Positions 41,722 through 58,032 of a stretch of DNA of 64,000 bases are shown one piece after another (position 1 is the stretch's first letter; each line of letters opens with the position of its first letter). Under the pieces are notes generated by a model. That model saw only the letters and a list, made by a program, of their open reading frames with translations, made no database searches and had not been told where the DNA came from. The stretch comes from Polyangiales bacterium (lineage in GTDB: Bacteria > Myxococcota_A > Polyangia > Polyangiales > Polyangiaceae). The stretch is from assembly GCA_038231275.1 (NCBI GenBank), contig JBBRLQ010000024.1, forward strand, positions 59,244 through 123,243, read 5' to 3'. The translations under genes were made by a program, and so were the position numbers.

Positions 41722-41798
41722 ACGATCGTTGCAACCTGGAGGCGTCTGGACCCGACCATATCAAACGACGGGCGTGACCCACGAGAAGAGGAGCCGCC

Positions 41799-42176
41799 AT
41801 GGCCGATGAGCCCAGAGTGTGCGCAGACTGCCGGAGACGCTTCGTCTTCTCCGAACAAGAGCGGGTCTTCTTCGTCGCGCGCGCCCTCGCCGTTCCCCGA
41901 CGATGCCCGCCCTGTAGGAAAGCGCGCCGGCAAGGCGCCGCGCCCGAGGCTCCGTTTTCGGGCGAGCCGCCCTCCGGCACCCGCCGCCGCGAGACCGCGT
42001 CCGGCCCGTTCGTGATCACGTGCTCCGCGTGCAGCGAGAAAGCGACGGTCCCGTTCCTCCCCGAGCCCGGTCGCTCCGTCTATTGTGGCCCGTGTCACCA
42101 TGCGCGCCGTGGGGCCGAAAAGCGGGCGGCCAACGCGCCGCTCGCCGTCGGTGGCGACAAGGATATTCTCGAATAA
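41799..42176 (+). CDS. Zinc-ribbon / CxxC-x17-CxxC domain protein
   Basis: CADC..F.FSEQE...PRRCPPC and CSAC...VPF.P...RSVYCGPC; GAGGAG Shine-Dalgarno. Confidence 0.88.
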   Translation: MADEPRVCADCRRRFVFSEQERVFFVARALAVPRRCPPCRKARRQGAAPEAPFSGEPPSGTRRRETASGPFVITCSACSEKATVPFLPEPGRSVYCGPCHHARRGAEKRAANAPLAVGGDKDILE

Positions 42177-42196
42177 TTTCGTATTTTTACGACATC

Positions 42197-42225
42197 TTGA
42201 CGCGTCGCGTTGTCGTTCTTAGATT
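42197..42225 (+). promoter_or_regulatory. Sigma70-type promoter TTGACG-N17-TAGATT
   Basis: Near-consensus boxes with optimal spacing in an AT-rich island; palindrome TCGTA-N4-TACGA at 42179-42192 just upstream. Confidence 0.65.
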
Positions 42226-42254
42226 GGTGGTGTCCGAAGTCGAGGAGGCCACCG

Positions 42255-42350
42255 ATGCATTTTTCGCGGGAGAGCGTCCGTGAGGTCCTGGTCGCGGCAA
42301 CGCTAGGGCTGTTTTTGGCCGGCCTTTCGGTTCTTTGGGCGGCCCGGTAG
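42255..42350 (+). CDS. 31-aa small single-pass membrane protein (MHFSRESVREVLVAATLGLFLAGLSVLWAAR)
   Basis: GAGGAGG 6 nt before ATG, promoter upstream, ~20-residue hydrophobic stretch; below the ORF-track cutoff. Confidence 0.6.
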   Translation: MHFSRESVREVLVAATLGLFLAGLSVLWAAR

Positions 42351-42426
42351 GGAGAACGGAAGGCACCGGTTCGGTCATCTGTATTTTGTGGTACGGGAAA
42401 GCCCCCGTTTCCGCACAGGAGACCTC

Positions 42427-43572
42427 GTGCCTCGCGCCCCCAAGAAGCCCAAGACCACCGCCGAGAAGCCCGCCAAGCGCCCCGCTACGTCCGACGCCGC
42501 AGACGGAGGCGACACCGAGCAGGACGGCGAGGAGCGCGACGAGAGCGGCGAGCGCGAAGGCCAGGACGAAGAGGAGCACGAGGCGGTCGCCGAGGTCGAC
42601 GCGCCGGCGGAGTCCTCGGGCACCCTCGAGCCAGGTGAGGGAGAGGCCGAGGTCGAGGAGGGCGCCGACGTCGAGGTCGCGGAGGTGGCTCCCGCCTCGT
42701 CGGGCGGCTCTATCGCGCGCTTCGACGCGATGTCGGCCTACCTCCGTGAGGTGCAGCGTCATCCGCTCCTCACGCCAGAGCAGACCCACGAGATCGCCGT
42801 GAAGTTCCTCGCGACGCAGGATCCCGACATCGCGGCGCGCCTCGTCACGAGCAACCTGCGCCTCGTCGTGAAGATCGCGTACGAGTACCGCCGCGCGTAC
42901 AAGAACATCATGGACCTCGTGCAGGAGGGCAACATCGGCCTCATGCAGGCGGTGAAGCGCTACGACCCGTATCGCGGCGTGAAGCTTTCGAGCTACGCGG
43001 CGTGGTGGATCCGCGCATACATCCTGCGGTTCATCCTGAACAACTGGCGCCTCGTGAAGCTCGGCACCACGCAGGCGCAGCGAAAGCTTTTCTTCAACCT
43101 GCGCAAGAAGAAGGCGGAGCTCATGGCGATGGGGATCGACCCCACCAACGCCGAGATCGCCAAGCAGCTCAACGTGCCGGAGAGCGACGTCGCCGAGATG
43201 GACGTCCGCCTCGCCGCGAACGAAAAATCGCTCGACGCGCCGGTGGGCGACGCCGAGGGGCGCTCGATCGCCAAGGTCGACATGATGCCGAGCCTGGCCG
43301 ACGGGCCCGAAGCGCTCATGGCCGACGAGGAGCTGCAGGCGCTCTTGAAGGAGAAGCTCGCCGGCTTCCGTGAGCAGCTGCTCGCCAAGGAGAAGGAGCT
43401 CGCGATCTTCGATCTGCGCTTGGTCTCCGACGATCCGCTCACGCTCCAGGAGCTGGGCGACAAGTTCGGCATCTCGCGCGAGCGCGTACGTCAGCTGGAG
43501 CAGCGCCTGACCGGCCGGCTCCGCGACTACCTGAAAGAGGAGCTGGGCGACGCGGCGGAGGTCGGGGGTTGA
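42427..43572 (+). CDS. rpoH: RNA polymerase sigma factor, sigma-32 (RpoH/SigB-like) family
   Basis: NLRLVVKIA, DLVQEGNIGL, SYAAWWIRA, RpoH box QRKLFFNLR, TLQELG...ISRERVRQLE; acidic N-terminal extension. Confidence 0.9.
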   Translation: MPRAPKKPKTTAEKPAKRPATSDAADGGDTEQDGEERDESGEREGQDEEEHEAVAEVDAPAESSGTLEPGEGEAEVEEGADVEVAEVAPASSGGSIARFDAMSAYLREVQRHPLLTPEQTHEIAVKFLATQDPDIAARLVTSNLRLVVKIAYEYRRAYKNIMDLVQEGNIGLMQAVKRYDPYRGVKLSSYAAWWIRAYILRFILNNWRLVKLGTTQAQRKLFFNLRKKKAELMAMGIDPTNAEIAKQLNVPESDVAEMDVRLAANEKSLDAPVGDAEGRSIAKVDMMPSLADGPEALMADEELQALLKEKLAGFREQLLAKEKELAIFDLRLVSDDPLTLQELGDKFGISRERVRQLEQRLTGRLRDYLKEELGDAAEVGG

Positions 43573-44411
43573 ACGCCGGCGCGGGGACGCTGTACGTCGT
43601 CGCCACGCCGATCGGGAACCTGGGGGACATCACCGCGCGCGCCGTGGAGACGCTTCGTGCCGTTGCGCGCGTCGCGGCGGAGGACACGCGTCGCTCCCGC
43701 TCGCTGCTCACACACCTCGGAATCGCGGGCAAACCGATCGACGCCCTGCACGCGCATTCGGAGGCGCGCGACGTCGAGCGCCTGGTCGTGCACCTCACGG
43801 AGGGAGAGAGCGTCGCGCTCGTGACCGACGCGGGGACGCCGGCGGTGAGCGATCCGGGCGGAGCGCTCGTGCGCGCGGCGATCGCAGCGGACATTCGCGT
43901 CGTGCCAATCCCCGGTCCCTCGGCGGTGCTGGCGGCGCTGGTCGCGAGCGGCCTGGCGGGCGACGGAGGGTTTCGGTTTCTCGGATTCCTCCCGCGCTCC
44001 GGCCCGACGCGCCACGCCGTGATCGCGCGCGCGTGCGAGACGCCGGAGGCGGTCGTGATCTTCGAGGCCCCGAGCCGGACGAAGGAGACGCTCGAGGACC
44101 TCGCCCGCGCGACGCCCGAGCGTGCGGCGTGCGTGGCGCGCGAGCTCACGAAGCTGCACGAAGAGCTCGTGCGCGGCGCGCTCGCGACGCTGGCGGCGGA
44201 CGATCGCGAATGGATCGGCGAGGTCGCGATCGTGCTCGGGCCCCACGATCCCGCATCGCGCGCCGCCACGATCGACGACGCGCAGATCGACGCGCGCATC
44301 GACGAGGAGCTCGCGCGCGGCGCACACGCGAAGGAGGCCGCGGAGCGCGTGGCCGCGTGGTCGGGGAGGCCGAAGCGGGAGATTTACGAACGGGTCGTGC
44401 GCAGGAAGTAA
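43569..44411 (+). CDS. rsmI: 16S rRNA (cytidine1402-2'-O)-methyltransferase
   Basis: LYVVATPIGNLGDIT.RA, AEDTR, DAGTPAVSDPG, PIPGPSA, RELTKLHEE. Confidence 0.95.
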   Translation: MNAGAGTLYVVATPIGNLGDITARAVETLRAVARVAAEDTRRSRSLLTHLGIAGKPIDALHAHSEARDVERLVVHLTEGESVALVTDAGTPAVSDPGGALVRAAIAADIRVVPIPGPSAVLAALVASGLAGDGGFRFLGFLPRSGPTRHAVIARACETPEAVVIFEAPSRTKETLEDLARATPERAACVARELTKLHEELVRGALATLAADDREWIGEVAIVLGPHDPASRAATIDDAQIDARIDEELARGAHAKEAAERVAAWSGRPKREIYERVVRRK

Positions 44412-44470
44412 TCGGAGTCGGAGTCGGAGTCGGAGTCGGAGTCGGAGTCGGAGTCGGAGTCGGAGTCGGA
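44412..44470. repeat. (TCGGAG)x~10 perfect hexamer array
   Basis: Starts at the base after the rsmI TAA. Confidence 0.97.
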
Positions 44471-44507
44471 AAGAGAGCGCGCGCTTCGTGCGCTACGCTT
44501 CCCTCGC

Positions 44508-45704
44508 ATGGCCAAGGAGCGAGAGATCGATGTCGCGTTCGCGCTCGAGGGGGTCTCGTGCGTCGTCGGCGTCCACGCGCTCAGGGGCGTCCGCGACGGG
44601 GATGCGTACGATTTCGCCGTAGAGATTCGCCCGCGGACCGGGCTGACCATCGCAGAGGCGCACTACCGGCTTCTGCTCGTCCTCTCGCAGGCGGAGTGCG
44701 GCCGCGTCTTGCTGGTCGATGCGGACGCCCTTGCGCCGATGCCGATGCGCCAGGCCGAGCGCATTCTTCTCACGGCTTCCCAGCGCGACGCGGCAGCAGC
44801 GCGCGCTTTGGGGCGCGTCGAGGGGATCGCACGGCGGTACGAGCGAGAAGAGGCCGACGCGGCAAAATATCGCGATAGCGCGGCGGCTATCCCGTTGCTC
44901 GCGTTCGACCCGAGCGACGTGAGCCACGTCTTCCGTCTCGCGTTCGAGATCTCGTTCGCGCTCGAAGAGCTCCGTGCCGTCCGCGGTGTATTCGTCGCCG
45001 AAGAGCGACGCCGAGGGCGCACGCAACGCCTCGATGTCTTCGTTGAGCTGCCCATGAACGCGAACGCCGTCTTCGCGGCCCACAAGCGCCTCGTCGAGCG
45101 ATGCGGCTGGGCAGCAGGCCGGGTGCTCTACGGCGACGGCGATATGAGGATGCGCTACCTCGCGCATCGCGTGCGCCAGACCACGTTCGAGCGGATTCAC
45201 GCGCGGGACCGCGCGGAGCGGCGCCTCGCCGAGCCGGTCGTCCGGGACTGGGCGCCGCTCGCACGGGAAGTCGAACGAGGCTTCGCGAACGGCCCACCGT
45301 TGCGCCCGGTGGCGCTGAGGATTGAAGGAGACCACGCGTGCCCGGCCGCTGAGCCAGCCGCCGTACCCCGCGTGCTGCTCGTCCACGAGGACCGCAACTC
45401 TGTCGCCTCGCTCGCTGCGCTCGTTGGGCAGATCGACCTTCAGCAAGCCCGAGACGGATGGGAGGCCATCGATCTCGTCGGCGCGACGAAGTTCGATCTC
45501 GTCATCTCTGGCCTCCGCGTCGGGAGCATGCGCGGAATGCAGATTTACCGGACCGCCGTCGTCGCCGATCCGGAGCTCGCGGAGCGCTTTTTCTTCCTCA
45601 CTAGCGCCGAGACCAAGGACGCCGCGCCGCCATCCACGGCGCTGGCGCGGGTGCTGACGTCTCCGCTCGATCCGGAGGAAGTGCGACGCCTCCTCGGTCT
45701 CTAG
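44508..45704 (+). CDS. Hypothetical protein with C-terminal degenerate receiver domain
   Basis: RVLLVHED...ARDGWEAI...FDLVISGL...MRGMQIY...FFFLTS...VLTSP. Confidence 0.65.
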   Translation: MAKEREIDVAFALEGVSCVVGVHALRGVRDGDAYDFAVEIRPRTGLTIAEAHYRLLLVLSQAECGRVLLVDADALAPMPMRQAERILLTASQRDAAAARALGRVEGIARRYEREEADAAKYRDSAAAIPLLAFDPSDVSHVFRLAFEISFALEELRAVRGVFVAEERRRGRTQRLDVFVELPMNANAVFAAHKRLVERCGWAAGRVLYGDGDMRMRYLAHRVRQTTFERIHARDRAERRLAEPVVRDWAPLAREVERGFANGPPLRPVALRIEGDHACPAAEPAAVPRVLLVHEDRNSVASLAALVGQIDLQQARDGWEAIDLVGATKFDLVISGLRVGSMRGMQIYRTAVVADPELAERFFFLTSAETKDAAPPSTALARVLTSPLDPEEVRRLLGL

Positions 45705-45707
45705 CGC

Positions 45708-45734
45708 TCCGACGCCGACGCCGACGCCGACGCC
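45708..45734. repeat. (T/G)CCGAC x4.5 hexamer array
   Basis: 3 nt after the TAG of the upstream gene. Confidence 0.9.
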
Positions 45735-45765
45735 ATGGCCGCGTCATCGGTGATAGCGTCGCACA

Positions 45766-46902
45766 ATGAGAAGATCTGCCTTGCTGGTTCCCTTCGTCGC
45801 GGGCGCGATGCTCGCTGCGTCCGATGCGTCGGCCACTGGTCATGTCGCCGGGGGAGCGAATCCGCGGCTCTTTCACGCGCACGTGCCGGACGTTGCGCCG
45901 CCGCCCCCGATGCCGACCAAGGATCCGAAGGGTAACCCGCTGCCGAACGTCGGGCCGCCGCCGACGGGGACGTCGAAGATGCCGCTCGTCATCTTGCTGC
46001 ACGGCCTCGCCGTCGACGCGACGATGCAGGACATGTTCTTTCAGCTGCGGACGATCGCCGATCAGCGCCGCTTCGCGTTCGCGTACCTCGACGGCACGCG
46101 CAACGGACTGGGGCTCCAGTTCTGGAACGCCACCGACGGGTGTTGCCAGTTTCCCGCGAACCCAAACTTCGCGACGGCGTTCATGCACGGGATTCACGGG
46201 CTCCTCGGCGCGCTCACGGCGTCGGTCGGGGGGCCGCCGGTCGACGACGTCGGTTACATCGACTCGGTCATCGACGTGATGACCAAGACGTACCCCATCG
46301 ACGAAAAGCGCATCTTCGTCGTCGCCCACTCGAACGGCGGGTTCATGGCGCACCGGTTCGCGTGCGAGAACACGCGCGTCGCCGCGATCGCGACACTCTC
46401 GGGCGCGCAGTGGATGGACGCGTCGAGGTGCCCCGGGACCCACAAGGTATCGGTCCTGCACATCCACGACACGGCGGACGAGATCATTCCCTACGCGGGG
46501 GGCACGCCGCTGCTGTCGCCGCTCTTCTCGCCGGCGATGAGCATCGTGTACCCGAACATCTCGGTGCCGTCGGCGAAGGAGACCGTCGCGCGGTGGGCGA
46601 GGCGCGACGAGTGCAAGGGCGGCCTCACGATGGTCGGCGGTACGAAGGTCGATCTCGAGCAGCGCCTTCCGGGCCCCGACACGCTGATGGAGAAGTACGA
46701 CTGCCCGGCTCCCTACGGCGTCGAGCTGTGGACGATCGAGGGTGGGCCACCGAGGTCGCTGGAGACGCTCGACGGCACGAACTCGGCGCACATCCCGCGG
46801 TTTTACTACCACGGCATGCCGGGTTTCCATGAGCCGCCGGGGAACCAGCCGGCGTTCCCCGACCGCATCTACGACTGGCTCATCGCCCACCCGAAGCCGT
46901 GA
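45766..46902 (+). CDS. Secreted alpha/beta hydrolase (LpqC / PHB-depolymerase-like esterase)
   Basis: Signal peptide, PLVILLHG, WNATDGCC, VDDVGYI, nucleophile elbow AHSNGG, HIHDTAD. Confidence 0.85.
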   Translation: MRRSALLVPFVAGAMLAASDASATGHVAGGANPRLFHAHVPDVAPPPPMPTKDPKGNPLPNVGPPPTGTSKMPLVILLHGLAVDATMQDMFFQLRTIADQRRFAFAYLDGTRNGLGLQFWNATDGCCQFPANPNFATAFMHGIHGLLGALTASVGGPPVDDVGYIDSVIDVMTKTYPIDEKRIFVVAHSNGGFMAHRFACENTRVAAIATLSGAQWMDASRCPGTHKVSVLHIHDTADEIIPYAGGTPLLSPLFSPAMSIVYPNISVPSAKETVARWARRDECKGGLTMVGGTKVDLEQRLPGPDTLMEKYDCPAPYGVELWTIEGGPPRSLETLDGTNSAHIPRFYYHGMPGFHEPPGNQPAFPDRIYDWLIAHPKP

Positions 46903-46910
46903 GGACGACC

Positions 46911-48413
46911 ATGAACACGCCGAGACTTCTCGTCCTCGCCACGCCGACGCTGCTCCTCGCCGCGCTCGCCGCCACGCATTCGGGGCGCGCCGACGCGCTC
47001 ATCAACGGGCGGCCCACGCGCGCCGACGGCTCCGGGTTCGTGCACTTGCACGGCGCGATGTCGACGTGCAGCGGGACGCTCATCGCGCCGGACACGATTC
47101 TCACCAGCAAGGGGTGCTTCACCGCCGCCGAGGTCATCCACGCCGATCTCGCGGGGTGGTTCATGGGCGCGGATGACTCGGACAAAAACGCGCTTCGTGA
47201 GATCCATCCGCACCCGACGCTCGACGCAGCGCTCGTGCGGCTTACGCACCCGATCGTGAGCACGCTCTTCGATCTCTACCCCTTCGAGGCATCGCAGCTC
47301 GTCGGCGCGCGAATGACCTGCAATGGCTACGGCACCATGGGTGGTCCGCAGATCACCTACGGCGGACAGCTGTCGAGCGGCGAGTTCAACGTGCCGTCCG
47401 TCACGCCGACCACGCTCAACGTCGTGAGCCGCGTCCTCTTTGCCGGATACGATCAAGGCGGCGGCTGCGTCGTCGCGCACCAGGGGCGCTCTTTTCTGGC
47501 CGGCGTCATGAGCGTCGCCAACGCCAACCCCACGAGCGTGACCGCGCTGCGCCGCTTCGTCTCGTCGTTCGCGACGTGGCACGAGCTCGAGGCCGGCGAC
47601 ACCGACGTCTGCATCCGTGCGCCGCGATCGGCACCCGCCAACGCGACGACGCCGCTCGAGCTCGCCGCGTGCGACGGCAACCCCAGCGAGGGCTGGGAGG
47701 TGAAGACCGTCGACAACGGCAGCGTGGAGATCCGCGCCAAGGCGAGCAACCTCTGCCTCACCGCGGTCGGCGACGCGCTCGTTCAGGCAATGTGCGGAGG
47801 TGAGATCACCGAGGCGCACCCGGGCAAGCTCCCCAAGCAGCGCAAGCCCGAGCAGATGTGGGCGGTGTCGACCGCCACCGACGGCTTCGTCGAGCTGATG
47901 AGCATCGCGCGATCGGGTCGGTGCATCGAGGCGGTCGGCGTGGGCAAGGGCAATAACGGCAAGCTGACCCTCTCGCCGTGCAATCTCGCGACGCGCAGCC
48001 AGCACCTGCGCATCAACGTGACGCTGCTCGACGAGCGCGATCATCGCCTCGGGGGCGTGCCAGGATGCGCGTCGGCGAAGGAGCTGCGAAGCGCCGGCCC
48101 GATCGGCACCGACGCGTGCAGCGGCAAGGACAACCAGCTCTGGCGCCTCGAGCGCGCGGAACGCCCGTATTTTCTCGTACATTCGCGAGAGGGGCGGTAC
48201 GGGCGCTGCATCTCGTCGAGCGGGAGCGCGCTGCAAGAAGCGGGTTGCATCGGGACGACCGACGCGCAGAAGTGGCGCCTCGAGTACCAGCCGGACGGAA
48301 ACTACTCGCTGCGCGGGAAGCAGACCGGGCACTGCGCCCTCGCGACAGGGGGCGCGCTGGAGCAGATGGCGTGCGACTCGGCGCAGCCGAAGCAGCACTG
48401 GGCGATGGAGTAA
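46911..48413 (+). CDS. Secreted trypsin-like (catalytically degenerate) domain plus two ricin-B lectin domains
   Basis: CSGTLIAP, DAALVRL; QxW-type repeats (QMW, QLW, QKW, QHW) with C-L/I-x patterns. Confidence 0.75.
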   Translation: MNTPRLLVLATPTLLLAALAATHSGRADALINGRPTRADGSGFVHLHGAMSTCSGTLIAPDTILTSKGCFTAAEVIHADLAGWFMGADDSDKNALREIHPHPTLDAALVRLTHPIVSTLFDLYPFEASQLVGARMTCNGYGTMGGPQITYGGQLSSGEFNVPSVTPTTLNVVSRVLFAGYDQGGGCVVAHQGRSFLAGVMSVANANPTSVTALRRFVSSFATWHELEAGDTDVCIRAPRSAPANATTPLELAACDGNPSEGWEVKTVDNGSVEIRAKASNLCLTAVGDALVQAMCGGEITEAHPGKLPKQRKPEQMWAVSTATDGFVELMSIARSGRCIEAVGVGKGNNGKLTLSPCNLATRSQHLRINVTLLDERDHRLGGVPGCASAKELRSAGPIGTDACSGKDNQLWRLERAERPYFLVHSREGRYGRCISSSGSALQEAGCIGTTDAQKWRLEYQPDGNYSLRGKQTGHCALATGGALEQMACDSAQPKQHWAME

Positions 48414-48423
48414 CGACGGTTGG

Positions 48424-48477
48424 GCCGACGCCGACGCCGACGCCGACTCCGACGCCGACTCCGACTCCGACTCCGAC
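48424..48477. repeat. (G/T)CCGAC x9 hexamer array
   Basis: 10 nt after the TAA of the upstream gene. Confidence 0.95.
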
Positions 48478-48551
48478 TTGCGCGTCGGGTCTCGGCGCCT
48501 CATGCTCTCTCCATGAACTTCACCGAGCGCATCTGACGCCGGCCCTCTCTC

Positions 48552-49805
48552 TTGCCGCTCACGCTGGTCACGCTCGCCGACGAGCTGTGGAGCGGCGTGG
48601 CGGTGTGCGGCGCGCCGTCGGTGGAGGACGAGCTCGGGCTGTCGCACCGGGCGTACGTGACGTTCGTGTTCGCCGTGCCGCTGGTCGTCGCGGCCGTCCT
48701 CGAGGGCGGCATCGCGTTGCTCTCGGATTTGCGCGGGCGTGCGCGTGTTCTGGTGCTCGGACAGGCGGCGCTCGCGGCGTCGCTGCTGCTGACGGCGTGC
48801 GCTCGAGGGCCATGGGGCCTCACGATCGGCCTCGCGCTCGCAGGGACGTCCAGCGGCGTCGCGTGCGGTGCAGGGCAGGCGCTCCTGCTCCTTTGCTTCG
48901 GCGACGGTGATGACGCGCGCGATCGCGCGATGGTGCGCTGGACGCTCTACGGCGCAATCGGTGACGTGCTGGCACCGCTCGTCACGGCGGGCGCGGTCGC
49001 GATGGGGTTCTCGTACCGCGCGGCGATGGCGGCGGTCGCGGCGGGAGTTGCCGTCCAGTGCGCGGCGAGCGCGCGACGGCTCCTCCGCACGGAGCCTCCG
49101 CGCGGGGACGCGGACGCGCCGGACTGCGACGCGCCGGCGCCTCTGCGTAGCGCGCTCGCGGCCGCCATCCGTCGTCCCGCGCTGTGGGCGTGGCTCTTCG
49201 CGGCGGCGTCGTGCACGCTCCTCGACGAAGTGATCGTCGCGCTGGCCGCGCTGCGCCTCGTGCGCGATCAAGGTGCCACCGGCGCGCTCGCGGCGGCGTC
49301 GGCCGTGGCGTTCTCGGGGGGCGCGGTCGTCGGTGCGGCGCTCACCGATCGTGCCGTCGCGCGGTGGTCGTCGAGGCGCGTGCTCGTCGCGAGCGCCGTG
49401 GCGTGTGCTGCGGCGCTGGGCGTCTTCGTCGCGTCGACGGCGCCGGTCGCTTCGTGCGCCGCCTTGCTGCTCGTGGGCATCACGTGCGCGCCGCATCACG
49501 CGCTAGCGCTGTCGCGCGCGTACGGTGAGCTTCCCGGCAAGCCGGGAACGGTGCAGGCGATTGGGCAGATTTTCGTCGTGATGGATGTCGCGATTCCCCT
49601 TGCGATCGGAGTCGTGGCGGATCGCTTTGGGCTGGGCGTCGCGGTCGCGTGCCTGCTCGTGCAGCCCGCGGTGATCCTCGCGTGCGCGGTGCCGGGGGGC
49701 GCGGACGCCGACGCCGATTCCGATTCCGACTCCGACGCCGATTCCGATTCCGACGCCGACTCCGACGCCGACTCCGACGCCGACTCCGACTCCGACTCCG
49801 GGTGA
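48552..49805 (+). CDS. MFS transporter with repeat-derived Asp/Ser/Ala tail
   Basis: About 12 TM helices, [11 protein letters not shown] and ADRFG MFS motifs; start uncertain. Confidence 0.8.
49701..49800. repeat. (G/T)CCGA(C/T) x~16 hexamer array inside the MFS 3' end
   Basis: Read directly; left flank of the four-helix-bundle cassette. Confidence 0.95.
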
Positions 49806-49828
49806 CGGGCCTCTCTCGGGTCTGGGCG

Positions 49829-49920
49829 ATTTTGCCGGCGTGCTCGGCGGTGTCAAGGCCGAGCCGGCTGCGCCGGTGCCGCCTGCGGCGGCAGCCTTGA
49901 CACCGCCTGCGCTCGCCGGC
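49829..49920. promoter_or_regulatory. Y-shaped fold-back element, copy 1 (putative ssDNA promoter)
   Basis: 14-bp perfect stem 49846-49859/49894-49907, two triloop hairpins, outer stem 49834-49840/49914-49920; minus-strand TTGACA-N16-CAAAAT. Structure is seen, function is inferred. Confidence 0.7.
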
Positions 49921-49963
49921 TTCGGGGCGGCGCCCCGAGAGAAGGGGGCGCGAGGAGGTTTCG

Positions 49964-50278
49964 ATGTTGAGAGTTTATGAAGAGGTGCTCGAGGTGGTGG
50001 GGATGCTCAGGGAGGTGCTCGGTGAGATCGAGAAGAGGGATGTCGATCTGGGTCGGCAGCTGCGGCGCGCCGCGGCCAGTGTGGCGCTGAACATTGCCGA
50101 GGCGAATGGGAGTCGCGGGAGAAATCGCGGGTTGCGGTTCAGCACGGCGCTGGGCTCGATGCGCGAGACACTCGCATGTCTTCAGGTCGGCGCCGCGTTC
50201 GGGTACGTGGAGATGGACGGTGAGCTGCCGCAGAGGATCGACCGCATCTGCGCGGCGCTCTACTCGCTGGCGAGATGA
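49964..50278 (+). CDS. Four-helix-bundle protein (TIGR02436 / 23S-IVP / Avd-like fold), copy 1
   Basis: [21 protein letters not shown]....[12 protein letters not shown] signature; GAGGAGG Shine-Dalgarno. Confidence 0.9.
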
Positions 50279-50281
50279 GGT

Positions 50282-50322
50282 TCGCCGAGGGCGCCGCGGA
50301 AAACGGCGCCCTCGGCGAGTTT
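50282..50322. terminator. 15-bp perfect hairpin between the convergent genes, probable intrinsic terminator
   Basis: TCGCCGAGGGCGCCG-CGGAAAA-CGGCGCCCTCGGCGA followed by GTTTT. Confidence 0.8.
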
Positions 50323-50640
50323 TCACCGGGACAGGCGGTAGAGAGAGCCGCAGATACCGTCCATTTTGCGTGCAGTCTGCATGCACACCGCCTCCAGGTG
50401 ACCCATCGCAACCGCGACGTCCAAGCAGGCTTGCGTCTCCCGCATCGACCCCAGCGCCGTGCTGAACCGCACCGCGCCATTCCTCCCCCGACTCCCCTGC
50501 GCCTCCGCGACATTCAACGCGACGCTACTCACCGCCCGCCGCATCTGCCGCGCCAAGTCACTATCCCGCTTCTCGATCACCCCCATCGCGTCCTTCAACT
50601 CCCGAATCACCTCCAACACCTCTTCATAAACTCTGAGCAT
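50323..50640 (-). CDS. Four-helix-bundle protein (TIGR02436 / 23S-IVP / Avd-like fold), copy 2
   Basis: [11 protein letters not shown] start identical to copy 1; DLARQMRRAVSSVALNVAEA...[19 protein letters not shown] Shine-Dalgarno. Confidence 0.9.
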   Translation of the reverse strand: MLRVYEEVLEVIRELKDAMGVIEKRDSDLARQMRRAVSSVALNVAEAQGSRGRNGAVRFSTALGSMRETQACLDVAVAMGHLEAVCMQTARKMDGICGSLYRLSR

Positions 50641-50676
50641 CCCAGCCTCCTTCTCCCCTCTCGGGGGCCCCCCTCC

Positions 50677-50766
50677 GCTCGCGAGCGCAGGCGGGGTCAA
50701 GGCTGCCCCGCAGGGGCACCGGCGAAGCCGGCTCGGCCTTGACGCCGCCGAGCACGCGAGCAAGCT
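50677..50766. promoter_or_regulatory. Y-shaped fold-back element, copy 2 (putative ssDNA promoter)
   Basis: Stem 50690-50703/50736-50749 (one mismatch), hairpins TGCCCC-GCA-GGGGCA and CCGGC-GAA-GCCGG, outer stem 50677-50683/50755-50761; plus-strand TTGACG-N16-CAAGCT. Confidence 0.7.
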
Positions 50767-50788
50767 AGCCCCCTCGAGAGAGGAGCAC

Positions 50789-50918
<130 letters not shown>

Positions 50919-50975
50919 TTCCCCCCCGCTCGTCCCCTCGTGCGCGCCGCCCTGGGAAATGCGAGCCTCCCCCTC

Positions 50976-52301
50976 GTGACCGCACGATCCGCCTCGGTTC
51001 TCACCGTCTTCGCGCTCCTCGCGGCGTGCAGCAAAACAGAGCCTCCCGCGCCGGGCCTCCTCGAGGCCGCCCCTACCGTCGCCGCGTCCACCTCTCCTGT
51101 CGACGCAGCGCCGCCCGGAATCGGCGAAGGTGGCGGCACGCTCGAAGCGGAGGGCGCGACGCTGACGATCCCCGAAGGCGCCCTCAGGGGCGCGCGCGTC
51201 TTCACGATCGCGTCCGTGAAAGGTGACGCGCTGGTCGGTTGGCCACGCGGCACCGAGCTCGGCTTCGCCTTCACGCCGGCGGGCGAGCGCTTTCGTGTGC
51301 CGGTGACGATCGCGCTACCGCACCCCGCCAGCCCCGACGGCGGCGGGGGCGGCGGCGAGATCGTCTGCGAGAACCGGCCTGGCGATCGCACCCAGACCCA
51401 GTTCGACGGCACCTTCGACGGCAAGCCGCTGCCCGTCCACGTCAACGTCCTGCCGCGCCGCTGCGCCGTCTATACCGCCGAGCACGCCAAGGCGCTCCAG
51501 GCCGCGCGCGCGAAGGAAGCGGCGATGGTCGACAAGGGGAACACGTCGTACCACTGGGAGATCAAGGGCCAGGTTTGCGATCCACACGATCTGGTACGCC
51601 CCAACGCTGGGCGCGATCTCCGCGAGCCGCCCGGCCTCGGCGGATGCCCGGCCGGGATGGCGCGGATCCCCGGCAGGCCGAGCGCGTGCGTCGACCGCTG
51701 GGAGCCGCACCTCGTCGAGGTGCTGGACGACGGCACGGAGCACACGTGGACGCCGTACTTCAACCCTGCGGGCCTCAAGGTCCGGGCGAAGAGCTCGCCC
51801 GGCGCAGTGCCGCAGGCGTACATCTCACAGGTGCAAGCCGGCGCGGCGTGCGCGGCGTCGGGCAAGCGCCTCTGCAAAGACGACGAGTGGGTGCTCGCGT
51901 GCAAGGGCAGCAAACACACCCAATTTCCCTACGGAAACGAGGAAAAGCGGGGAACATGCAACGATCAACGGGACCCTCACCCGGCGATGCAGTACCTCGA
52001 ATCGCACGATCTCTCAGTGTTCACGAAGCTCGAGCACCCGTGCATCAACCAGGTGCCCGACTCGCTACTGCCAGGCGGCGCGAAGGCCGCGTGCGCGACG
52101 CCCGAGGGCGTCTACGACATCGTCGGCAACCTGCACGAGTGGACGGCCGACCCGAGCGGACACTTCCGCGGCGGGTACTACGTCGACACGTGGCTCAACG
52201 GTCACGGGTGCGACTACGTCACGACCGCGCACGAGGCGCGGTACTGGGACTACTCCACCGGCTTCCGCTGCTGCGCAGACGCGCCCGCGCGCGACCAGTA
52301 G
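50976..52301 (+). CDS. Lipoprotein with C-terminal FGE-sulfatase/SUMF1 domain
   Basis: Lipobox AAC; CPAGMA, GKRLC...EW..AC, FPYG, GVYDIVGNLHEW, FRGG, GFRCC. Confidence 0.85.
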   Translation: MTARSASVLTVFALLAACSKTEPPAPGLLEAAPTVAASTSPVDAAPPGIGEGGGTLEAEGATLTIPEGALRGARVFTIASVKGDALVGWPRGTELGFAFTPAGERFRVPVTIALPHPASPDGGGGGGEIVCENRPGDRTQTQFDGTFDGKPLPVHVNVLPRRCAVYTAEHAKALQAARAKEAAMVDKGNTSYHWEIKGQVCDPHDLVRPNAGRDLREPPGLGGCPAGMARIPGRPSACVDRWEPHLVEVLDDGTEHTWTPYFNPAGLKVRAKSSPGAVPQAYISQVQAGAACAASGKRLCKDDEWVLACKGSKHTQFPYGNEEKRGTCNDQRDPHPAMQYLESHDLSVFTKLEHPCINQVPDSLLPGGAKAACATPEGVYDIVGNLHEWTADPSGHFRGGYYVDTWLNGHGCDYVTTAHEARYWDYSTGFRCCADAPARDQ

Positions 52302-52335
52302 AGTGAGAGCGGGCTAGGCGAGGGCTAGGCGCTGT

Positions 52336-53469
52336 TCAGACGCCGCCGCTCGCGCCGGCCTTCGCGCTGATGCTCGCGCTCGCCTGAACACTGACTCGCA
52401 GCGACGCTTGCGCGGAGATCGTCGCGTTCGCGGCCGCCGCGATGCACGCGCCGGCGTGGGCCGTCAGCTGACCGAGCGCGCTCGGCAGCTCGCTGCCCGA
52501 CTGGACGAGAACCTGCACGTCGCCGGCGATGCGGCGGCCGTACGCGATCTCGGCGGTGACGAGGACGGGGAGGTTCGCTTGCAGCGTGGCGATGAGCTTG
52601 CCCATCTCGCCGGTATTCACCGTCGCGTGGACGGCGACGCGCGCCTCGGTGCACCGCGCGGTGAGCTCCGCGTGCGCTTTGCAGCTCCCGGCGCAGTGGG
52701 CGTCGGCGCTCGGCGCCTTCACGGCGACGTCGCACTTGGGCTCCTTGAAGTCGACCGTGCACGCGCCGTGGCAATCGGCAGTGCACGTCCCCTTGCACGT
52801 TCCGTTGCATTGGCCCGCACACTGGCCGGCACCCGCGGCGCTGCCCGCCGCCGCATGCGCTTGGCCCGCGCACTGCCCCTGGCACTCGCCGTTGCACGTC
52901 CCGGCGCACTGGCCGGAGCACGTCCCCTCGCATCGTCCATAGAGGTGCCCGGGCTCGCAGTGCGCCTTCACGTAGCCGGGGTCGACGTTCACGTTGCATG
53001 CGCCCTTGCATGCTGCTTCAGCGTCGGCGTGGACCTCACATTGCGGCGGGGTGACGTCGGCCTTCACGGACGCAGAGACGCCCGTTCGGAGGATCGCATC
53101 CATTCGCGCGGACACCGCGTTGCACGCTGCAGCGACGCGTCCCTCGTTCTGTCGCGGCGTCATCTGCTCGGGAGGGACGCCCAGATCACGGCCCATGCGC
53201 TCGCACGCGACGCCGACCTCGGCCTCGGCCTTCGCGGCGATCGTCTGCAGGTCGCCGCTCGCGGTGACGAAGGCGCGGATCGTCGCGTTCGCGCGCGCGT
53301 CCGCCTCGAACGACGCGTTCATGGCGCCGCCTTGGAGCTCGGGACACGCGAAGTTGCCGAGCGCGCCCGCGGCGCCCGTCCCTCCGGCGCCGAACTCGCC
53401 TCCGCACGCGACGACGACCGCGCCAACGAACCCGCAGACCACGATGTACTTCGCCGACGTTCGGATCAT
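52336..53469 (-). CDS. Cys-rich (CxGxC repeat) lipoprotein
   Basis: GGAAGAGG Shine-Dalgarno, lipobox VAC, central CEGTCSGQCAGTCNGEC repeats. Confidence 0.8.
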   Translation of the reverse strand: MIRTSAKYIVVCGFVGAVVVACGGEFGAGGTGAAGALGNFACPELQGGAMNASFEADARANATIRAFVTASGDLQTIAAKAEAEVGVACERMGRDLGVPPEQMTPRQNEGRVAAACNAVSARMDAILRTGVSASVKADVTPPQCEVHADAEAACKGACNVNVDPGYVKAHCEPGHLYGRCEGTCSGQCAGTCNGECQGQCAGQAHAAAGSAAGAGQCAGQCNGTCKGTCTADCHGACTVDFKEPKCDVAVKAPSADAHCAGSCKAHAELTARCTEARVAVHATVNTGEMGKLIATLQANLPVLVTAEIAYGRRIAGDVQVLVQSGSELPSALGQLTAHAGACIAAAANATISAQASLRVSVQASASISAKAGASGGV

Positions 53470-53606
53470 GTGCCCCTCTTCCTTGCCGATAGTGGATGAG
53501 GTGCGCAAGGCACGATGCGCGCCACCCGGAGGGCGCGCATAACGCGGGCGAAACGAAGACTACGGACGCGCTCGACCTCCGCATGCGGCGCAAATGCGCC
53601 ACACGA

Positions 53607-54341
53607 TCAGATCGCTCGCCCGAGCGCCTCGTCGACGCTGCGCTGGCTGAAGCCGACCATGATCTTGCCCTTCACGTCGAGGACGGGGATGGAGCCCGCG
53701 CGCAGGCCGTTCTTCGCGAGCTTTTGCTGCATCTCGCGCGCGGCTCCCTGATCGGTCTCCACGTTCTTTTCGATGAACGCCACGCCCTTCTTCCGCAGGT
53801 ACGCGGCGGCGTCGTGGCAGGCGGTGCACCAGTCGGCACCGTAGATGATGACGAGCGGGCGACCGTCGGGCGGCGGATCGGCTTGCGCGAGCGGGCTTCC
53901 GGGTTGCTGGCGAGGAATGCTCGGCGGCGCGTCGCTCGCGGGGGGTGCCGCGCTCGCTAGGGTCGGACCGTTCTTCTCGCGACGCGTCACCGCGAGCTGA
54001 TCGAACTCGAGGCGCGACATGGTCTTGACGGGGTAGAGGCCACCCGCGCCCGCGACGCGCAGGTCCGCGACGAAGACTTTGTCGGCGTGCGTTCCGTCTT
54101 CGCGCGCGGGATCGACGACGCGGACGGCGTCGCGTCCCTCGAGCGGCACGTCGGTCGGGCGAACTTCGACGTGGAAGTCTCCCTTCGCGTCGATCCACGT
54201 GAGGAGCAGCCCCTCGGTTGCGTCGCGGACCTCCACCGTCACGGGCGGATCCGCGGTGGCGCCGCCGTTGCCCTTCCGGCACCCACCGATGGCGAAGAGC
54301 ATCACGAGGGAGAGCGTGACGAGGAAGACGATTCGATTCAT
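53607..54341 (-). CDS. Lipoprotein with C-terminal glutaredoxin (NrdH-like) domain
   Basis: Lipobox GGC; IYGADWCTAC, IPVLDV.G..MVGF. Confidence 0.85.
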   Translation of the reverse strand: MNRIVFLVTLSLVMLFAIGGCRKGNGGATADPPVTVEVRDATEGLLLTWIDAKGDFHVEVRPTDVPLEGRDAVRVVDPAREDGTHADKVFVADLRVAGAGGLYPVKTMSRLEFDQLAVTRREKNGPTLASAAPPASDAPPSIPRQQPGSPLAQADPPPDGRPLVIIYGADWCTACHDAAAYLRKKGVAFIEKNVETDQGAAREMQQKLAKNGLRAGSIPVLDVKGKIMVGFSQRSVDEALGRAI

Positions 54342-56275
54342 CGCGCCGCGTCCGTCTCCGAGAGCTTGGTCCACTCCGACATCATTGCGTCCACCCGCTT
54401 GGACAAAGCTTGCTCCTCGGCGGCCATCTTGGCCAGCTTTGCCCAGTCTCCCGCCGGATCCTCCTTCAATTTCTCGCGCATCACGCCGAGCTGCTTCTCC
54501 CCGTCCGCGATGAGGCTTTCGAGCTCCTCCACGCGCCGCTTCCTCTTCTCGCGGTCGCGGGTGACCTGACGCTGGACCTCGTAGGCATGCTTCTTCGCGC
54601 GCTCCTCGTCTTTGGAGACGGACGGAGGAGCCTCTTTCTTCCTGGCTTCGGGCTTCGGCTCGTCCTTTTTTGGCGGCGCGAAATGGGCGGTGACGTAGTC
54701 CTTGAAGCCGCCGGGGTAGATGTCGACCACGCCGTCGCGCACACTCACGATCCGCGTCGTCACGTTCTCGAGGAAGCGGCGATCGTGGGAGACGAGGACG
54801 ACCGTGCCGTCGAAACCGACCAGCGCCTCCTCGAGGATCTCGGCGGCGGGGATGTCGAGGTGGTTGGTCGGCTCGTCGAGGAAGAGGAGGTTGCGCGGCT
54901 CGAGGAGGAGCTTGGCGAGCGCGAGGCGTGAGCGCTCCCCGCCCGAGAAGCCGGAGACGACGCGGAGCGGGTCGTCGCCCCAGAAGCGGAAGCGTGCGAG
55001 GTATTGCCGCGCCGCCTCGACGGTGAAGTCGCCGCGCACCGTGCGCACGTTGTCGACGGCGGTCATCGTGGGGTCGACCTCGCCGAGGTGTTGATCGAAG
55101 TAGCCTTCCTGGAGGTTCGTGCCGCGCTTCACGGCTCCGGTGTCGTCGGGGAAGCCGCGGCCGGCGAGGAGCTTCAGGAGCGTGGTTTTTCCCGAGCCGT
55201 TGGGCCCGACCACGCCGATCCGCTCGCCGCGGCGCATCAAGATGTCGACGCCGTCGAACAGCGTTCGGCCGCCGCGCACGGCGTGGAGATTCTTGCAGTC
55301 GAGGACGATGTCGCCCGAGCGCGCCGACGGGGCGAAGCGAAACCGGATCTTTTCGGCGACTTGCCAGACGTCTTCCGGTTTGTCGACGCGATCGAGCTTG
55401 TCCAGCATCTTGCGCCGGCTCTGCGCTTGCTTCGTCTTCTGGCCGGCGATGTTCTTGCGGATGAAGTCCTCGGTCTTGTCGATGAACGCCTGCTGACGCT
55501 CCATCACCGCCCGCTCGCGCGCGAGGTCCTCTTGGCGGAGCACGGCGTAGTCCGAGTATTTTTGCCCATAGACGCGGAGGCCTCGCGTCCCGAGCTCCAT
55601 CGTGCTCGGGCAAACGTTGTCGAGGAACTGCCGATCGTGGGACACGACGAGGATGGCGCCGCGGTATTTGACCAGCCACGACTCGAGCCACGCGATGGTG
55701 TCGAGGTCGAGGTGGTTGGTGGGCTCGTCGAGGAGGAGCAGATCCGGCTCTTGCGAGAGGACGACGCCGAGCTGCAGACGGCCGCGCTCGCCGCCGGAAA
55801 GCGACGCCACCGGCCGCGTGAGATCGGCGTCCGAGAACCCGAGCTTGTGGGCCAGGATCGCGACTTCGCGTTCGAGCTCGTCGCCGCGCGCGAGGTGGTA
55901 CTGGTCGGTCACGGTCGCGAGCTGCTCCAGCGCACGCGCGTCGCCGCTCGCCGCTCCCTCTTGCGCCGCCGTCAGCTCCTCGCGAAGGCGCACGACGTCC
56001 GCGAAGCCCGATAGAAACGCGCCGAGCACGTCTCCCTTCGCCACGAGCTCGTGCGACTGCCGGTAGTAGCCGAACGTCGTCTCCTTCTTGATGACGCTGG
56101 ACCCCTGATCGGGCTCGAGCTCGCGCGCGATGATGCGAAGGAGAGTGGATTTACCCGCGCCGTTGGGCGCGACGAGGGCCGCGCGCTCGCCGATGGCCAA
56201 CGTGAAGGTGACGTTCTCGAAGAGCGTGTCGCCGGCGTAGCCGAAGCGCAGGTCGGCGACCTGGAGGACGGTCAT
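54338..56275 (-). CDS. ABC-F family ATP-binding protein
   Basis: Two NBDs (PNGAGKS/LSGGE/LDEPTNHLD; GPNGSGKT/FSGGE/LDEPTNHLD), no TM domain, C-terminal coiled coil. Confidence 0.95.
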   Translation of the reverse strand: MTVLQVADLRFGYAGDTLFENVTFTLAIGERAALVAPNGAGKSTLLRIIARELEPDQGSSVIKKETTFGYYRQSHELVAKGDVLGAFLSGFADVVRLREELTAAQEGAASGDARALEQLATVTDQYHLARGDELEREVAILAHKLGFSDADLTRPVASLSGGERGRLQLGVVLSQEPDLLLLDEPTNHLDLDTIAWLESWLVKYRGAILVVSHDRQFLDNVCPSTMELGTRGLRVYGQKYSDYAVLRQEDLARERAVMERQQAFIDKTEDFIRKNIAGQKTKQAQSRRKMLDKLDRVDKPEDVWQVAEKIRFRFAPSARSGDIVLDCKNLHAVRGGRTLFDGVDILMRRGERIGVVGPNGSGKTTLLKLLAGRGFPDDTGAVKRGTNLQEGYFDQHLGEVDPTMTAVDNVRTVRGDFTVEAARQYLARFRFWGDDPLRVVSGFSGGERSRLALAKLLLEPRNLLFLDEPTNHLDIPAAEILEEALVGFDGTVVLVSHDRRFLENVTTRIVSVRDGVVDIYPGGFKDYVTAHFAPPKKDEPKPEARKKEAPPSVSKDEERAKKHAYEVQRQVTRDREKRKRRVEELESLIADGEKQLGVMREKLKEDPAGDWAKLAKMAAEEQALSKRVDAMMSEWTKLSETDAAR

Positions 56276-56292
56276 GGCGCCCGCTGTTTACC

Positions 56293-56373
56293 ACAGACTC
56301 CGACGCCGACTCCGACGCCGACGCCGACTCCGACGCCGACTCCGACTCCGACGCCGACTCCGACGCCGACGCC
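56293..56373. repeat. (T/G)CCGAC x~13 hexamer array
   Basis: Directly abuts the stop codon of the 56373-57941 gene. Confidence 0.95.
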
Positions 56374-57941
56374 TACGGCTGACAGGTCCCGTTCACGCAG
56401 TACTGGAACTTTGGGCACGCCTTGCCGCAGCCGCCGCAGTTCGCCGGATCGCTGAGCACGTCCACGCACGCGCCGTTGCACTGGTTGGTCTCCGGCCCGC
56501 AGACGCATGCGCCGGCGCGACAGATTCCGCCAGGCATGCACGTCGTGCCGCATGCGCCGCAGTTGGTCGGGTCGAGCGAGGTGTCGGCGCAGAGGCCGTT
56601 GCAAACGGTTTGCCCAGTGGCGCACGCGCACGCGCCGCCGGCGCAGAGCTGGTTGCCGGGGCACGACTTGCCGCAGGCGCCGCAGTTGCCGGCGTCGTTC
56701 AGGGGATCGACGCAAATGCCTCCGCACGCGACGAAGCCCGCTGCACACACGCACGCGCCGCGCCGGCACCCTTGGCCGGCCCCGCAGGCGACGCCGCATG
56801 CGCCGCAGTTCTGCGGATCGCCGGCGAGGTTCACGCACGCGCCGTTGCATGTCGTCTCTCGGCGGCCGCAGGTCGCGGCGCAGCGCCCACGCGCGCACAC
56901 TTGGTCCGCGGCGCACGCGTTGCCGCAGGCGCCGCAGTTGTCGTGGTCGTTCGCGAGCTCGTGGCATGCGCCGTTGCAGAACGTCTCGCCGTCGGGGCAC
57001 TTGCACGCGCCGGAGACGCAGAGCTGACCTATGCCGCAGGGACGTCCGCACGCGCCGCAATTTGCCGGATCGTTTCCCAGGTTCGCGCAGCCGTTCTTGC
57101 ACGCGGCGAGGCTACCCGCGCACGCGCAGGCGCCGGAGACGCACGGCTCGCCGGCGCCGCACGCGTTGCCGCACGCGCCGCAATTCAGCGGATCGCTGTC
57201 GACGTGAACGCACACGCCGCCGCAGCGTGTGCTCCCGGCTGCGCACGCGCACTTGCCTCCGCCACATACTTCGGTGGGCAAGCAGGCTACGCCGCACGCG
57301 CCGCAGTTCAGCGGATCCGCAGTGGTGTCCACGCAGCTCTGGCCGCACGCGGTGAACGGCGGCGTCGTGCAGCTGCCCACGCACGCGCCCGACTGGCAGA
57401 ACGGCGCTGCGGAGGTGCATGTGACGCCGCACGCGCCGCAGTTGTTGGGATCGCTGGCGATGCCGGTGCAGACGCCGCCGCACGCCTGCTCGCTGGGCGG
57501 ACACGCGCATTTGCCCGCGACGCACGCCTGTCCCTTCGCGCACGCGTTGCCGCACGCACCGCAGTTCGCGGCGTCGGATTGCGTCCCGACGCACGCGGCG
57601 CCGCATTTGGTGAGACCGGTCGCGCACGCGGCCTGGCACGTGCCGTTCGAGCAGACGAGACCCGCGTCGCACGCGTGGCCGCACGTGCCGCAGTTCGTGG
57701 CGTCGGACTCGGCGTCGACGCATGCGCCCTTGCAGCTGGTTTGGCCGTTGGGACACGTGGCTGCCGGCGGCACGCCGCATTCGCCGTTGATGCAAGAATA
57801 GCCGCTGGTGCCGGTCTGGCAGTCGGCGTCGGTCGTACACGTCGCCGTCCCGTTCTTGCCGCCGCAGCTCACGACGAGGAGAGCGGCGACGACCACGGCG
57901 AACACGATCACGTGCGAGAGGAGTCGGGTGGGCGTGTGCAT
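56373..57941 (-). CDS. MXAN_6577/Stig1-like Cys-rich repeat lipoprotein
   Basis: Lipobox VSC; more than ten 'DPxNCGACGxxC' repeats. Confidence 0.88.
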   Translation of the reverse strand: MHTPTRLLSHVIVFAVVVAALLVVSCGGKNGTATCTTDADCQTGTSGYSCINGECGVPPAATCPNGQTSCKGACVDAESDATNCGTCGHACDAGLVCSNGTCQAACATGLTKCGAACVGTQSDAANCGACGNACAKGQACVAGKCACPPSEQACGGVCTGIASDPNNCGACGVTCTSAAPFCQSGACVGSCTTPPFTACGQSCVDTTADPLNCGACGVACLPTEVCGGGKCACAAGSTRCGGVCVHVDSDPLNCGACGNACGAGEPCVSGACACAGSLAACKNGCANLGNDPANCGACGRPCGIGQLCVSGACKCPDGETFCNGACHELANDHDNCGACGNACAADQVCARGRCAATCGRRETTCNGACVNLAGDPQNCGACGVACGAGQGCRRGACVCAAGFVACGGICVDPLNDAGNCGACGKSCPGNQLCAGGACACATGQTVCNGLCADTSLDPTNCGACGTTCMPGGICRAGACVCGPETNQCNGACVDVLSDPANCGGCGKACPKFQYCVNGTCQP

Positions 57942-58032
57942 GGGCAGATCGATAGTGGACCTCGCAGCGAGAACAGGATCACGGAAAGCGCCGTGCCCCG
58001 GCATTTACGGCGCAGGGGCACTTTTCCCCGGT

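Follow-up and report, generated by a model that had tools for sequence, protein, structure and literature searches.

The stretch of DNA analysed here, referred to below as the window, is 64 kb of high-GC chromosome from a Polyangiales bacterium (contig JBBRLQ010000024.1) and encodes two convergent four-helix-bundle proteins, both of which are assigned to PF05635, the 23S rRNA-IVS four-helix-bundle protein family. The two genes are separated by a perfect palindrome, and ahead of each lies an element of about 90 nt that folds into a hairpin, with a period-6 tandem array on the far side of it (Table 1). A third period-6 array of similar units, without a cassette, is found at 48425-48478, between an MFS gene and a lectin-protease gene (46899-48413) whose secreted-looking product contains both a trypsin domain and ricin-type lectin repeats and gives a weak match to the CDtoxinA domain. 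Elsewhere the Pfam content of the window includes pyruvate kinase, NadA, an Hsp70-family protein, alanine racemase, kinases and trehalose synthesis genes. The 35 window ORFs that were scanned include no relaxase, no type IV secretion gene and no phage gene, so that no stage with long-lived single strands is evident, and the hairpin has no match in a phage collection.

Table 1. Coordinates of the two gene-hairpin-array units, numbered from the first letter of the window
Feature	Position	Strand	Remarks
Period-6 tandem array, distal of copy 1	49704..49800		GACTCC-type units, ~16 copies
-10-like hexamer CAAAAT, copy 1	49829..49834	-	C (-12) is the last stem pair; AAAAT outside the stem
Three-way-junction hairpin, copy 1	49834..49920	-	DNA and RNA folds, covariation, loop statistics
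-35-like hexamer TTGACA, copy 1	49851..49856	-	within the paired stem
TTGACA, gene-proximal arm of copy 1, sense strand	49896..49901	+	no -10-like hexamer after it
Shine-Dalgarno GAGGAGG, gene 1	49952..49958	+	conserved GGAG ahead of the ATG in the family alignment
Four-helix-bundle gene 1	49964..50278	+	PF05635, 104 aa, E 9e-13
Perfect 15-bp palindrome between genes 1 and 2	50282..50318		repeat scan
Four-helix-bundle gene 2	50323..50640	-	PF05635, 105 aa, E 1.5e-12
Three-way-junction hairpin, copy 2	50677..50761	+	folded strand is the plus strand, the template of gene 2
-35-like hexamer TTGACG, copy 2	50739..50744	+
-10-like hexamer CAAGCT, copy 2	50761..50766	+	2/6 to consensus; A-11 and T-7 kept
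Period-6 tandem array, distal of copy 2	50787..50918		~22 copies; direct, not inverted, relative to the left array

A conserved hairpin upstream of the four-helix-bundle genes

The first-pass annotation of this DNA had described fold-backs in front of both genes, and these are real: DNA folding gives z = -6.4 for the minus strand of copy 1 and z = -5.2 for the plus strand of copy 2 relative to shuffled sequences, within an overall range of -4.4 to -6.4 for DNA folds and of -2.3 to -6.6 for RNA folds of both strands. The copy 1 hairpin is made up of a 7-bp base stem, two conserved small internal loops, a TTGAC/GTCAA stem and two mini-hairpins (49863-49877 and 49878-49892), the loops of which read GCA on the minus strand. 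In the predicted fold, GTCAAGGC pairs with GCCTTGAC to form the inner stem, and the two mini-hairpins complete a three-way junction. Copies 1 and 2 are more similar to each other in the element upstream of the genes than within the coding sequence, and their base stems differ by compensating changes. In copy 1, an additional outer stem can be recognized by eye between CCTCTCTCGGG (49810-49820) and CCCCGAGAGAAGG at about 49934-49946; a comparable outer stem exists in several alphaproteobacterial copies. Searches of Rfam with the region 49000-51500 of the window produced only two chance-level matches, neither of them on the hairpins, and 18 loci from other phyla produced none at E 0.01.

A DNA search detected the element in 61 of the 151 genomes of the same bacterial family. 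Only two copies are present in the genome under study, as opposed to at least five in one genome of the same genus. In 33 of 40 copies, drawn from about 20 genomes, a PF05635-like ORF begins 33-68 nt downstream in the same orientation; the remaining copies are either cut by a contig end or have no detectable ORF. An alignment of 39 of these copies, with one truncated copy omitted, contains compensatory double changes in 20 of the 26 pairs predicted by RNAalifold, a pattern that argues that the hairpin fold is under selection. The period-6 array is likewise a regular companion, being located 30-80 nt distal of nearly every copy in the family, with a different hexamer at each locus, and convergent pairs of PF05635 genes recur. 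The upstream neighbour is divergent in 10 of the 24 loci that could be scored, gene 2 of the window being such a case, so read-through cannot supply the four-helix-bundle transcript at these loci.

Several loci elsewhere are built on related but distinct plans. A second convergent PF05635 pair in the same genome (L008, contig C80, 146-900) has a simpler upstream hairpin with a GCTTGAC arm and a GAA triloop on the antisense strand, together with a (GGTCGT)n array and without a -10-like hexamer. Convergent pairs in another family of the same order (L091, L092 and L094) have an upstream design that differs from the three-way-junction hairpin: a long, near-perfect hairpin abuts the ATG and holds the ribosome-binding site in its 3' arm. 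In still other families (L071, L079 and L083), the arrays before PF05635 genes consist of GTTGAC- or GTCAAC-type hexamers, i.e. of tandem TTGAC motifs.

Promoter-like boxes in the distal arm

On the strand opposite each gene, the first-pass annotation had noticed a -35/-10 promoter motif in the arm of the hairpin that is farther from the gene, TTGACA-N16-CAAAAT in copy 1 and TTGACG-N16-CAAGCT in copy 2. The sequence agrees in every respect: the spacer is 16 nt in both copies, -11A and -7T are kept in both, and the strand and order of the hexamers are such that the boxes point away from the genes in duplex DNA. The motif has a TTGACA-like -35, a spacer within the 16-18 nt range of sigma-70 promoters, and the A and T at positions 2 and 6 of the TAnnnT -10 hexamer, although position 1, a C, departs from the consensus. 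Since TTGAC lies within a palindromic stem, it necessarily occurs on both strands, and the gene-proximal arms accordingly read TTGACA (copy 1) and TTGACC (copy 2). As had also been claimed, no -10 goes with them; neither copy has an A-N3-T hexamer 16-18 nt downstream, and the family alignment bears this out.

A consensus scanner identified the copy 1 boxes, with 10 of 12 matches, as the only sigma-70-like site in 49400-51200, where 0.0 are expected from 50 shuffles, and as one of two such sites in 40001-60000, where 0.6 are expected. The other site (42197-42225, TTGACG-N17-TAGATT, 9/12) is located just upstream of a gene for a sigma-70-family factor (42307-43569). The copy 2 boxes, with 7 of 12 matches, fall under the threshold of the scanner and retain the A at position 2 and the T at position 6. 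Three occurrences of the loose motif TTGAC-N18-A-N3-T are present in the window against 1.68 expected, and 20 of 100 shuffles also reach three. As the two copies are homologous, the window alone gives no significance to the boxes, and the weight comes from their conservation in relatives.

Read on the antisense strand, the 39 family copies share a GCC-TTGACn core, in which the -35 appears as TTGA in 26, TGGA in 12 and TCGA in one, followed by a spacer of 16 nt in 36 copies and of 15 nt in three. The first base of the -10 is C in 28, T in seven and G in four. The A at -11 (the complement of alignment column 39) is present in all 39 and the T at -7 (the complement of column 35) in 36, and the three positions between them carry less than 1 bit each; the hexamer thus shows the information profile of a sigma-70 -10 element. 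Given that the last stem pair corresponds to position -12, A-11 comes directly after the stem. The base that faces it across the stem base, on the sense strand, is G, T or C and never A (0/39 by eye, 0/29 in a scripted subset). The -10 is fully open in both window copies; in some lineages, pairing with the other flank takes up positions -10 to -8 and leaves T-7 bulged. The spacer also contains invariant internal-loop bases, GTGCTCG opposite CCTGCG, that resemble a binding site.

Because A-N3-T is its own complement, both key bases also appear on the sense strand, where a -35 at the right distance is lacking: a sense sigma-70 promoter that shares this A-N3-T was considered and rejected, there being no conserved -35 at 16-18 nt upstream in the family alignment, and no conserved sigma-70 promoter in the sense direction emerged from the consensus scan and the alignment. 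Sigma-54 and ECF-type readings of the distal flank, checked against the alignment by eye, do not fit in spacing. Among PF05635 genes outside the element family that are preceded by other hairpins, no bias toward antisense promoters was detected, with five sense and five antisense sites and about 3.9 expected (45 regions across the class, one skipped for masked bases).

The strand that folds

Two tests that are independent of the boxes identify the folding strand. Among 109 unique hairpin cores, the antisense strand has a G-N-A loop with a C-G closing pair in 80 of 101 predicted triloops and the sense strand in 0 of 101, the C-G-closed loops GAA, GCA, GGA and GTA being confined to one strand; GNRA tetraloops follow the same pattern, with 9 of 50 on the antisense and 0 of 50 on the sense strand. 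The second test concerns wobble pairs. In ten variable pairs across the 109 copies (1090 cells), 955 cells are Watson-Crick and 70 are of other kinds, and reading the antisense strand gives 53 G-T wobble-type cells, compared with 12 for the sense strand. The copies are related, so that these loop and wobble counts, like those on conservation, overstate independence; the direction of the asymmetry is consistent over several positions and phyla. Taken together, the loop and wobble asymmetries assign the fold to the strand on which the boxes lie and which is the template of the four-helix-bundle gene, as the first-pass annotation had proposed. Its description of the geometry holds in the predicted folds as well: in the folded template strand, the -35 is paired, the -10 lies unpaired at the base of the stem, and the other arm runs on as the template of the gene. 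A comparison of folding energies between the strands gave no signal, with the sense strand the better one in 23 of 39 copies (mean -1.0 kcal/mol).

Whether this strand folds as DNA or as RNA is less clear-cut. The excess of triloops over tetraloops (101 to 50), with loops of the c-GNA-g type, speaks for DNA. Mini-hairpins of the GCGNAGC type are described as extraordinarily stable in DNA and as poor binders of SSB, and are placed at single-strand DNA priming sites (G4, St-1, alpha3 and ssiA of RSF1010) and in the single-strand promoters of phage N4, in a 2026 review (PMC13037366) and in PMC3201870. Also on the side of DNA, no promoter for an antisense-strand RNA covering the hairpin was found in the consensus scan or the family alignment. 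For RNA speak the antisense-strand wobble of about 5%, which is typical of RNA helices and fits RNA as well as DNA, and the invariant internal-loop bases of the spacer.

Two other candidate identities were set aside. An integron attC-like site seems unlikely, as the order and sequence of R''/R' core sites are not matched, and an open-complex mimic, with a 13-nt bubble and downstream duplex, is not general, as only 25 of 108 copies have z below -2 and loop sizes vary from 0 to 17.

Occurrence in other phyla

A blastn comparison of the element with 72,556 plasmids returned 12 records, 11 from Bradyrhizobium and one from Streptomyces; the Bradyrhizobium matches cover exactly the hairpin at 74-75% identity (e.g. 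L101, 6001-6089). With a search pattern comprising 23 fixed bases, applied to a single genome for each species, at least 122 stretches were located, and DNA was retrieved for 80 loci (L104-L183 among them). Carriers among the matches listed belong to the Alphaproteobacteria (Bradyrhizobium, Caulobacteraceae and others), one Burkholderiales genome, the Myxococcota, Actinomycetota, Acidobacteriota, Planctomycetota and Binataceae. One match, inside an adenylosuccinate lyase gene (L121), is probably due to chance. Among the matches listed, 81 unique cross-phylum copies were compared at the two key positions, neither of which was fixed by the search pattern: 66 have T39, 63 have A35 and 59 have both, against a background A or T content of about 15%. 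The copies without T39/A35 come mostly from one Caulobacteraceae subgroup among the matches listed. Opposite T39, an A is found in 9 of 66 of the listed copies, about as often as expected by chance.

The genomic context differs between lineages. Within the matches listed, a PF05635 gene follows the element only in Myxococcota-type genomes and in one Planctomycetota copy. In other phyla, the hairpin is located 40-120 nt past the stop codon of an ordinary gene, co-directional with it in 13 of 17 cases by a hand tally of the matches listed, or otherwise adjoins IS3, IS110 or IS256 transposase genes, often at their 3' ends. Inverted pairs of the hairpin occur in some loci, and one alphaproteobacterial genome has six copies with a shared unit of about 165 nt and sharp edges. 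An IS110 bridge or seek RNA was considered and appears less likely, as the Bradyrhizobium hairpin is also found without an IS110 gene and elsewhere sits beside IS3 and IS256 genes. The hairpin is more likely a neighbour or target than a part of one insertion sequence, and insertion beside extragenic palindromes (REP) is a known pattern (PMC1525189, PMC12288879).

In a number of alphaproteobacterial loci (L113, L124, L136, L107, L110 and others), GGGAC and then two short direct repeats follow 20-70 nt past the hairpin. These repeats co-vary between loci (GAAGAATG...AAAGAATG, or GGAGAAAC...AAAGAAAC) and enclose a small hairpin, an arrangement that looks like a guide or attachment-type feature. 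Among the papers listed by a literature search of limited coverage, there was no published description of the hairpin.

A possible single-strand promoter

On these data, we propose with a probability of about 0.4 that the element is a single-strand promoter or priming signal comparable to Frpo or ssi. When single-stranded or extruded, the template strand would fold into a long stem with two very stable c-GNA-g mini-hairpins as its cap, and the gene-distal arm of this fold would present TTGACn, 16 nt and cAnnnT, with the -35 and the spacer double-stranded and the stem ending at -12. A-11 and T-7 would stand outside Watson-Crick pairing, in a shape that resembles the fork junction bound by sigma-70 RNA polymerase, and the other arm would continue as template into the four-helix-bundle gene. 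We infer from this arrangement that polymerase could bind there and start about 12 nt past the stem, which in copy 1 would be near 49932, some 32 nt before the ATG at 49964 and ahead of the ribosome site. As the boxes point outward in the duplex, activity would be expected only while the region is single-stranded or extruded, from whatever physiological source the single strands may arise. Such a template-strand promoter would explain how the four-helix-bundle genes are expressed, given that they have no recognisable sense promoter and that their neighbours can be divergent.

The proposal is contested by several of the observations. The -10 is weak, with C at -12 in 28 of 39 family copies and only two of six consensus bases in copy 2, and a promoter model leaves the invariant internal-loop bases of the spacer unaccounted for. 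In most phyla among the matches listed the hairpin has no gene following it, and the locus studied here is ordinary chromosome. Equally unfavourable are the lack of antisense-promoter bias among other PF05635 genes, the restricted occurrence of a downstream duplex, and the chance-level frequency of A opposite T39 in the cross-phylum set. The Frpo-like interpretation put forward in the first-pass annotation therefore stands in part: the geometry, the conservation of the boxes and the folding of the template strand are in its favour, and the chromosomal context, the weakness of the -10 and the situation in other phyla are not.

The possibility that we take most seriously besides, while considering it improbable on balance, is that the hairpin is a REP-type structured repeat or an undescribed RNA with another job, for instance protection of transcript 3' ends, a binding site for a protein or recombinase, or an insertion target, and that the likeness to -35 and -10 boxes is a by-product of conserved sequence. 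Its frequent position alone after the stop codon of a co-directional gene in several phyla, the multi-copy and sharply bounded units of the alphaproteobacterial genome, the inverted pairs and the transposase genes of three IS families that abut the hairpin, REP being known IS targets, would all be natural on such a reading. The invariant internal-loop bases suggest a specific binding partner, the wobble on one strand fits RNA and, by a rough estimate, the prior chance that, with TTGAC fixed, two conserved bases fall as A-N3-T at the right spacing is 0.07-0.13. A repeat or RNA has to contend, on the other side, with the lack of a matching Rfam family, with a preference for c-GNA-g triloops known for DNA, and with a genome of origin that holds two copies and hence no repeat family. 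The folding strand is, moreover, antisense to the four-helix-bundle gene as well as to those upstream genes that are co-directional, so an RNA would need a promoter of its own, and in the matches listed no unpaired feature of the flanks is more conserved across phyla than A-N3-T.

The boxes could also constitute an ordinary duplex sigma-70 promoter that fires outward, crossing a conserved GCTCGCTCGG-type box on its way into the period-6 array or the adjacent gene, with some other purpose for the hairpin. TTGACn-N16-cAnnnT is acceptable for a high-GC organism, the array lies downstream at nearly every family locus, a semi-conserved box occupies the would-be +8 to +17, and in copy 2 the boxes face a gene with an FGE-sulfatase domain at 50940. 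Yet the neighbouring genes show no preferred orientation (10 the same way, 14 opposite and 16 of 40 not scorable), transcription from copy 1 would run antisense into the MFS transporter gene, and the direction relative to the transposase gene is inconsistent in IS-associated copies. The mixed orientation of the neighbours, and an arm kept by compensatory changes on a favoured strand that is left unexplained, weaken this possibility to the point where we regard it as unlikely. A mere chance resemblance, with neither boxes nor hairpin having a function, would agree with the unremarkable count of the loose motif in the window and with the poor -10 of copy 2; the hairpin and the two key bases are, against this, conserved over 39 family copies and 81 of the cross-phylum matches listed, with compensatory changes, and we consider chance very improbable.

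If the single-strand promoter interpretation is followed further, the hairpins of the various phyla might form a chromosomal class of single-strand-specific promoters or priming signals, each a ready-made fork junction for the sigma-70 polymerase, a generalization that we offer as a speculative one and that is suggested by sequence comparison. Expression of the cassette gene (in other phyla, synthesis of a short RNA or a primer) would then be limited to times when the stretch is single-stranded, for which replication forks, repair, uptake, transfer or movement of the cassette itself could provide the occasion. An element of this kind would act as a built-in sensor of the single-stranded state and could explain the expression of promoter-less four-helix-bundle cassettes, thereby giving the widespread and so far unexplained rRNA-IVS-type cassettes a mode of expression. 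Single-strand promoters have so far come from conjugative plasmids and a few phages, in which they set the timing of the earliest gene expression following entry. A chromosomal counterpart conserved in several phyla would carry the principle beyond transfer, and would also represent a compact DNA part with activity restricted to the single-stranded form. Even without a promoter role, a hairpin that is conserved at the nucleotide level and in a strand-specific manner from Alphaproteobacteria to Actinomycetota, and that belongs to no Rfam family, is worth attention.

Relation to known systems

The closest functional parallel is Frpo, in which, according to PMC9849209 and PMC11541004, a stem-loop of single-stranded DNA rebuilds a -35 and a -10 from which the sigma-70 polymerase of the host reads the downstream gene, the boxes not serving that gene in the duplex form. 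The predicted DNA folds described here share with Frpo and ssi a template-strand stem-loop that presents -35 and -10 on the arm that acts as the non-template strand. The differences are considerable. Frpo and ssi belong to the leading regions of conjugative plasmids of the F and ColIb-P9 types, whereas the present element is chromosomal, with no transfer genes in 64 kb. The -10 of Frpo is inside the stem and that of the element outside it and unpaired; the stem of the element is capped by a three-way junction, and the gene downstream is a four-helix-bundle cassette gene rather than ssb, psiB or an anti-defence gene. The blastn comparison of the element with 72,556 plasmids showed no sequence likeness to F- or I-type plasmids. 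The element is not a member of the Frpo family, from which it departs in both context and sequence.

With the mini-hairpin sites of phage and plasmid single-strand genomes the element has in common the G-N-A loop closed by 5'-C...G-3', seen in 80 of 101 triloops; those sites are recognised by primases or by a T7-like polymerase and have no -35/-10 boxes. With REP and BIME sequences it shares the form of a hairpin between genes, a frequent location close behind a gene, an occasional arrangement in inverted pairs, and the insertion of IS elements alongside (PMC1525189). It differs from them in being conserved at the nucleotide level across phyla and not within a genus, in its size of about 90 nt and its three-way junction, and in having only two copies in its own genome; at least five copies exist in a genome of the same genus and six in one alphaproteobacterial genome. 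The IVS-type PF05635 cassettes, such as those in intervening sequences of 23S rRNA, are related through the gene itself, which is of the same family and is similarly bounded by short-period tandem arrays and hairpins. In convergent pairs these arrays are direct and not inverted, and in a single cassette (L018) they are inverted. What sets the present loci apart from the IVS-type cassettes is a separate, conserved three-way-junction hairpin between array and gene, which in other phyla is also found without PF05635.
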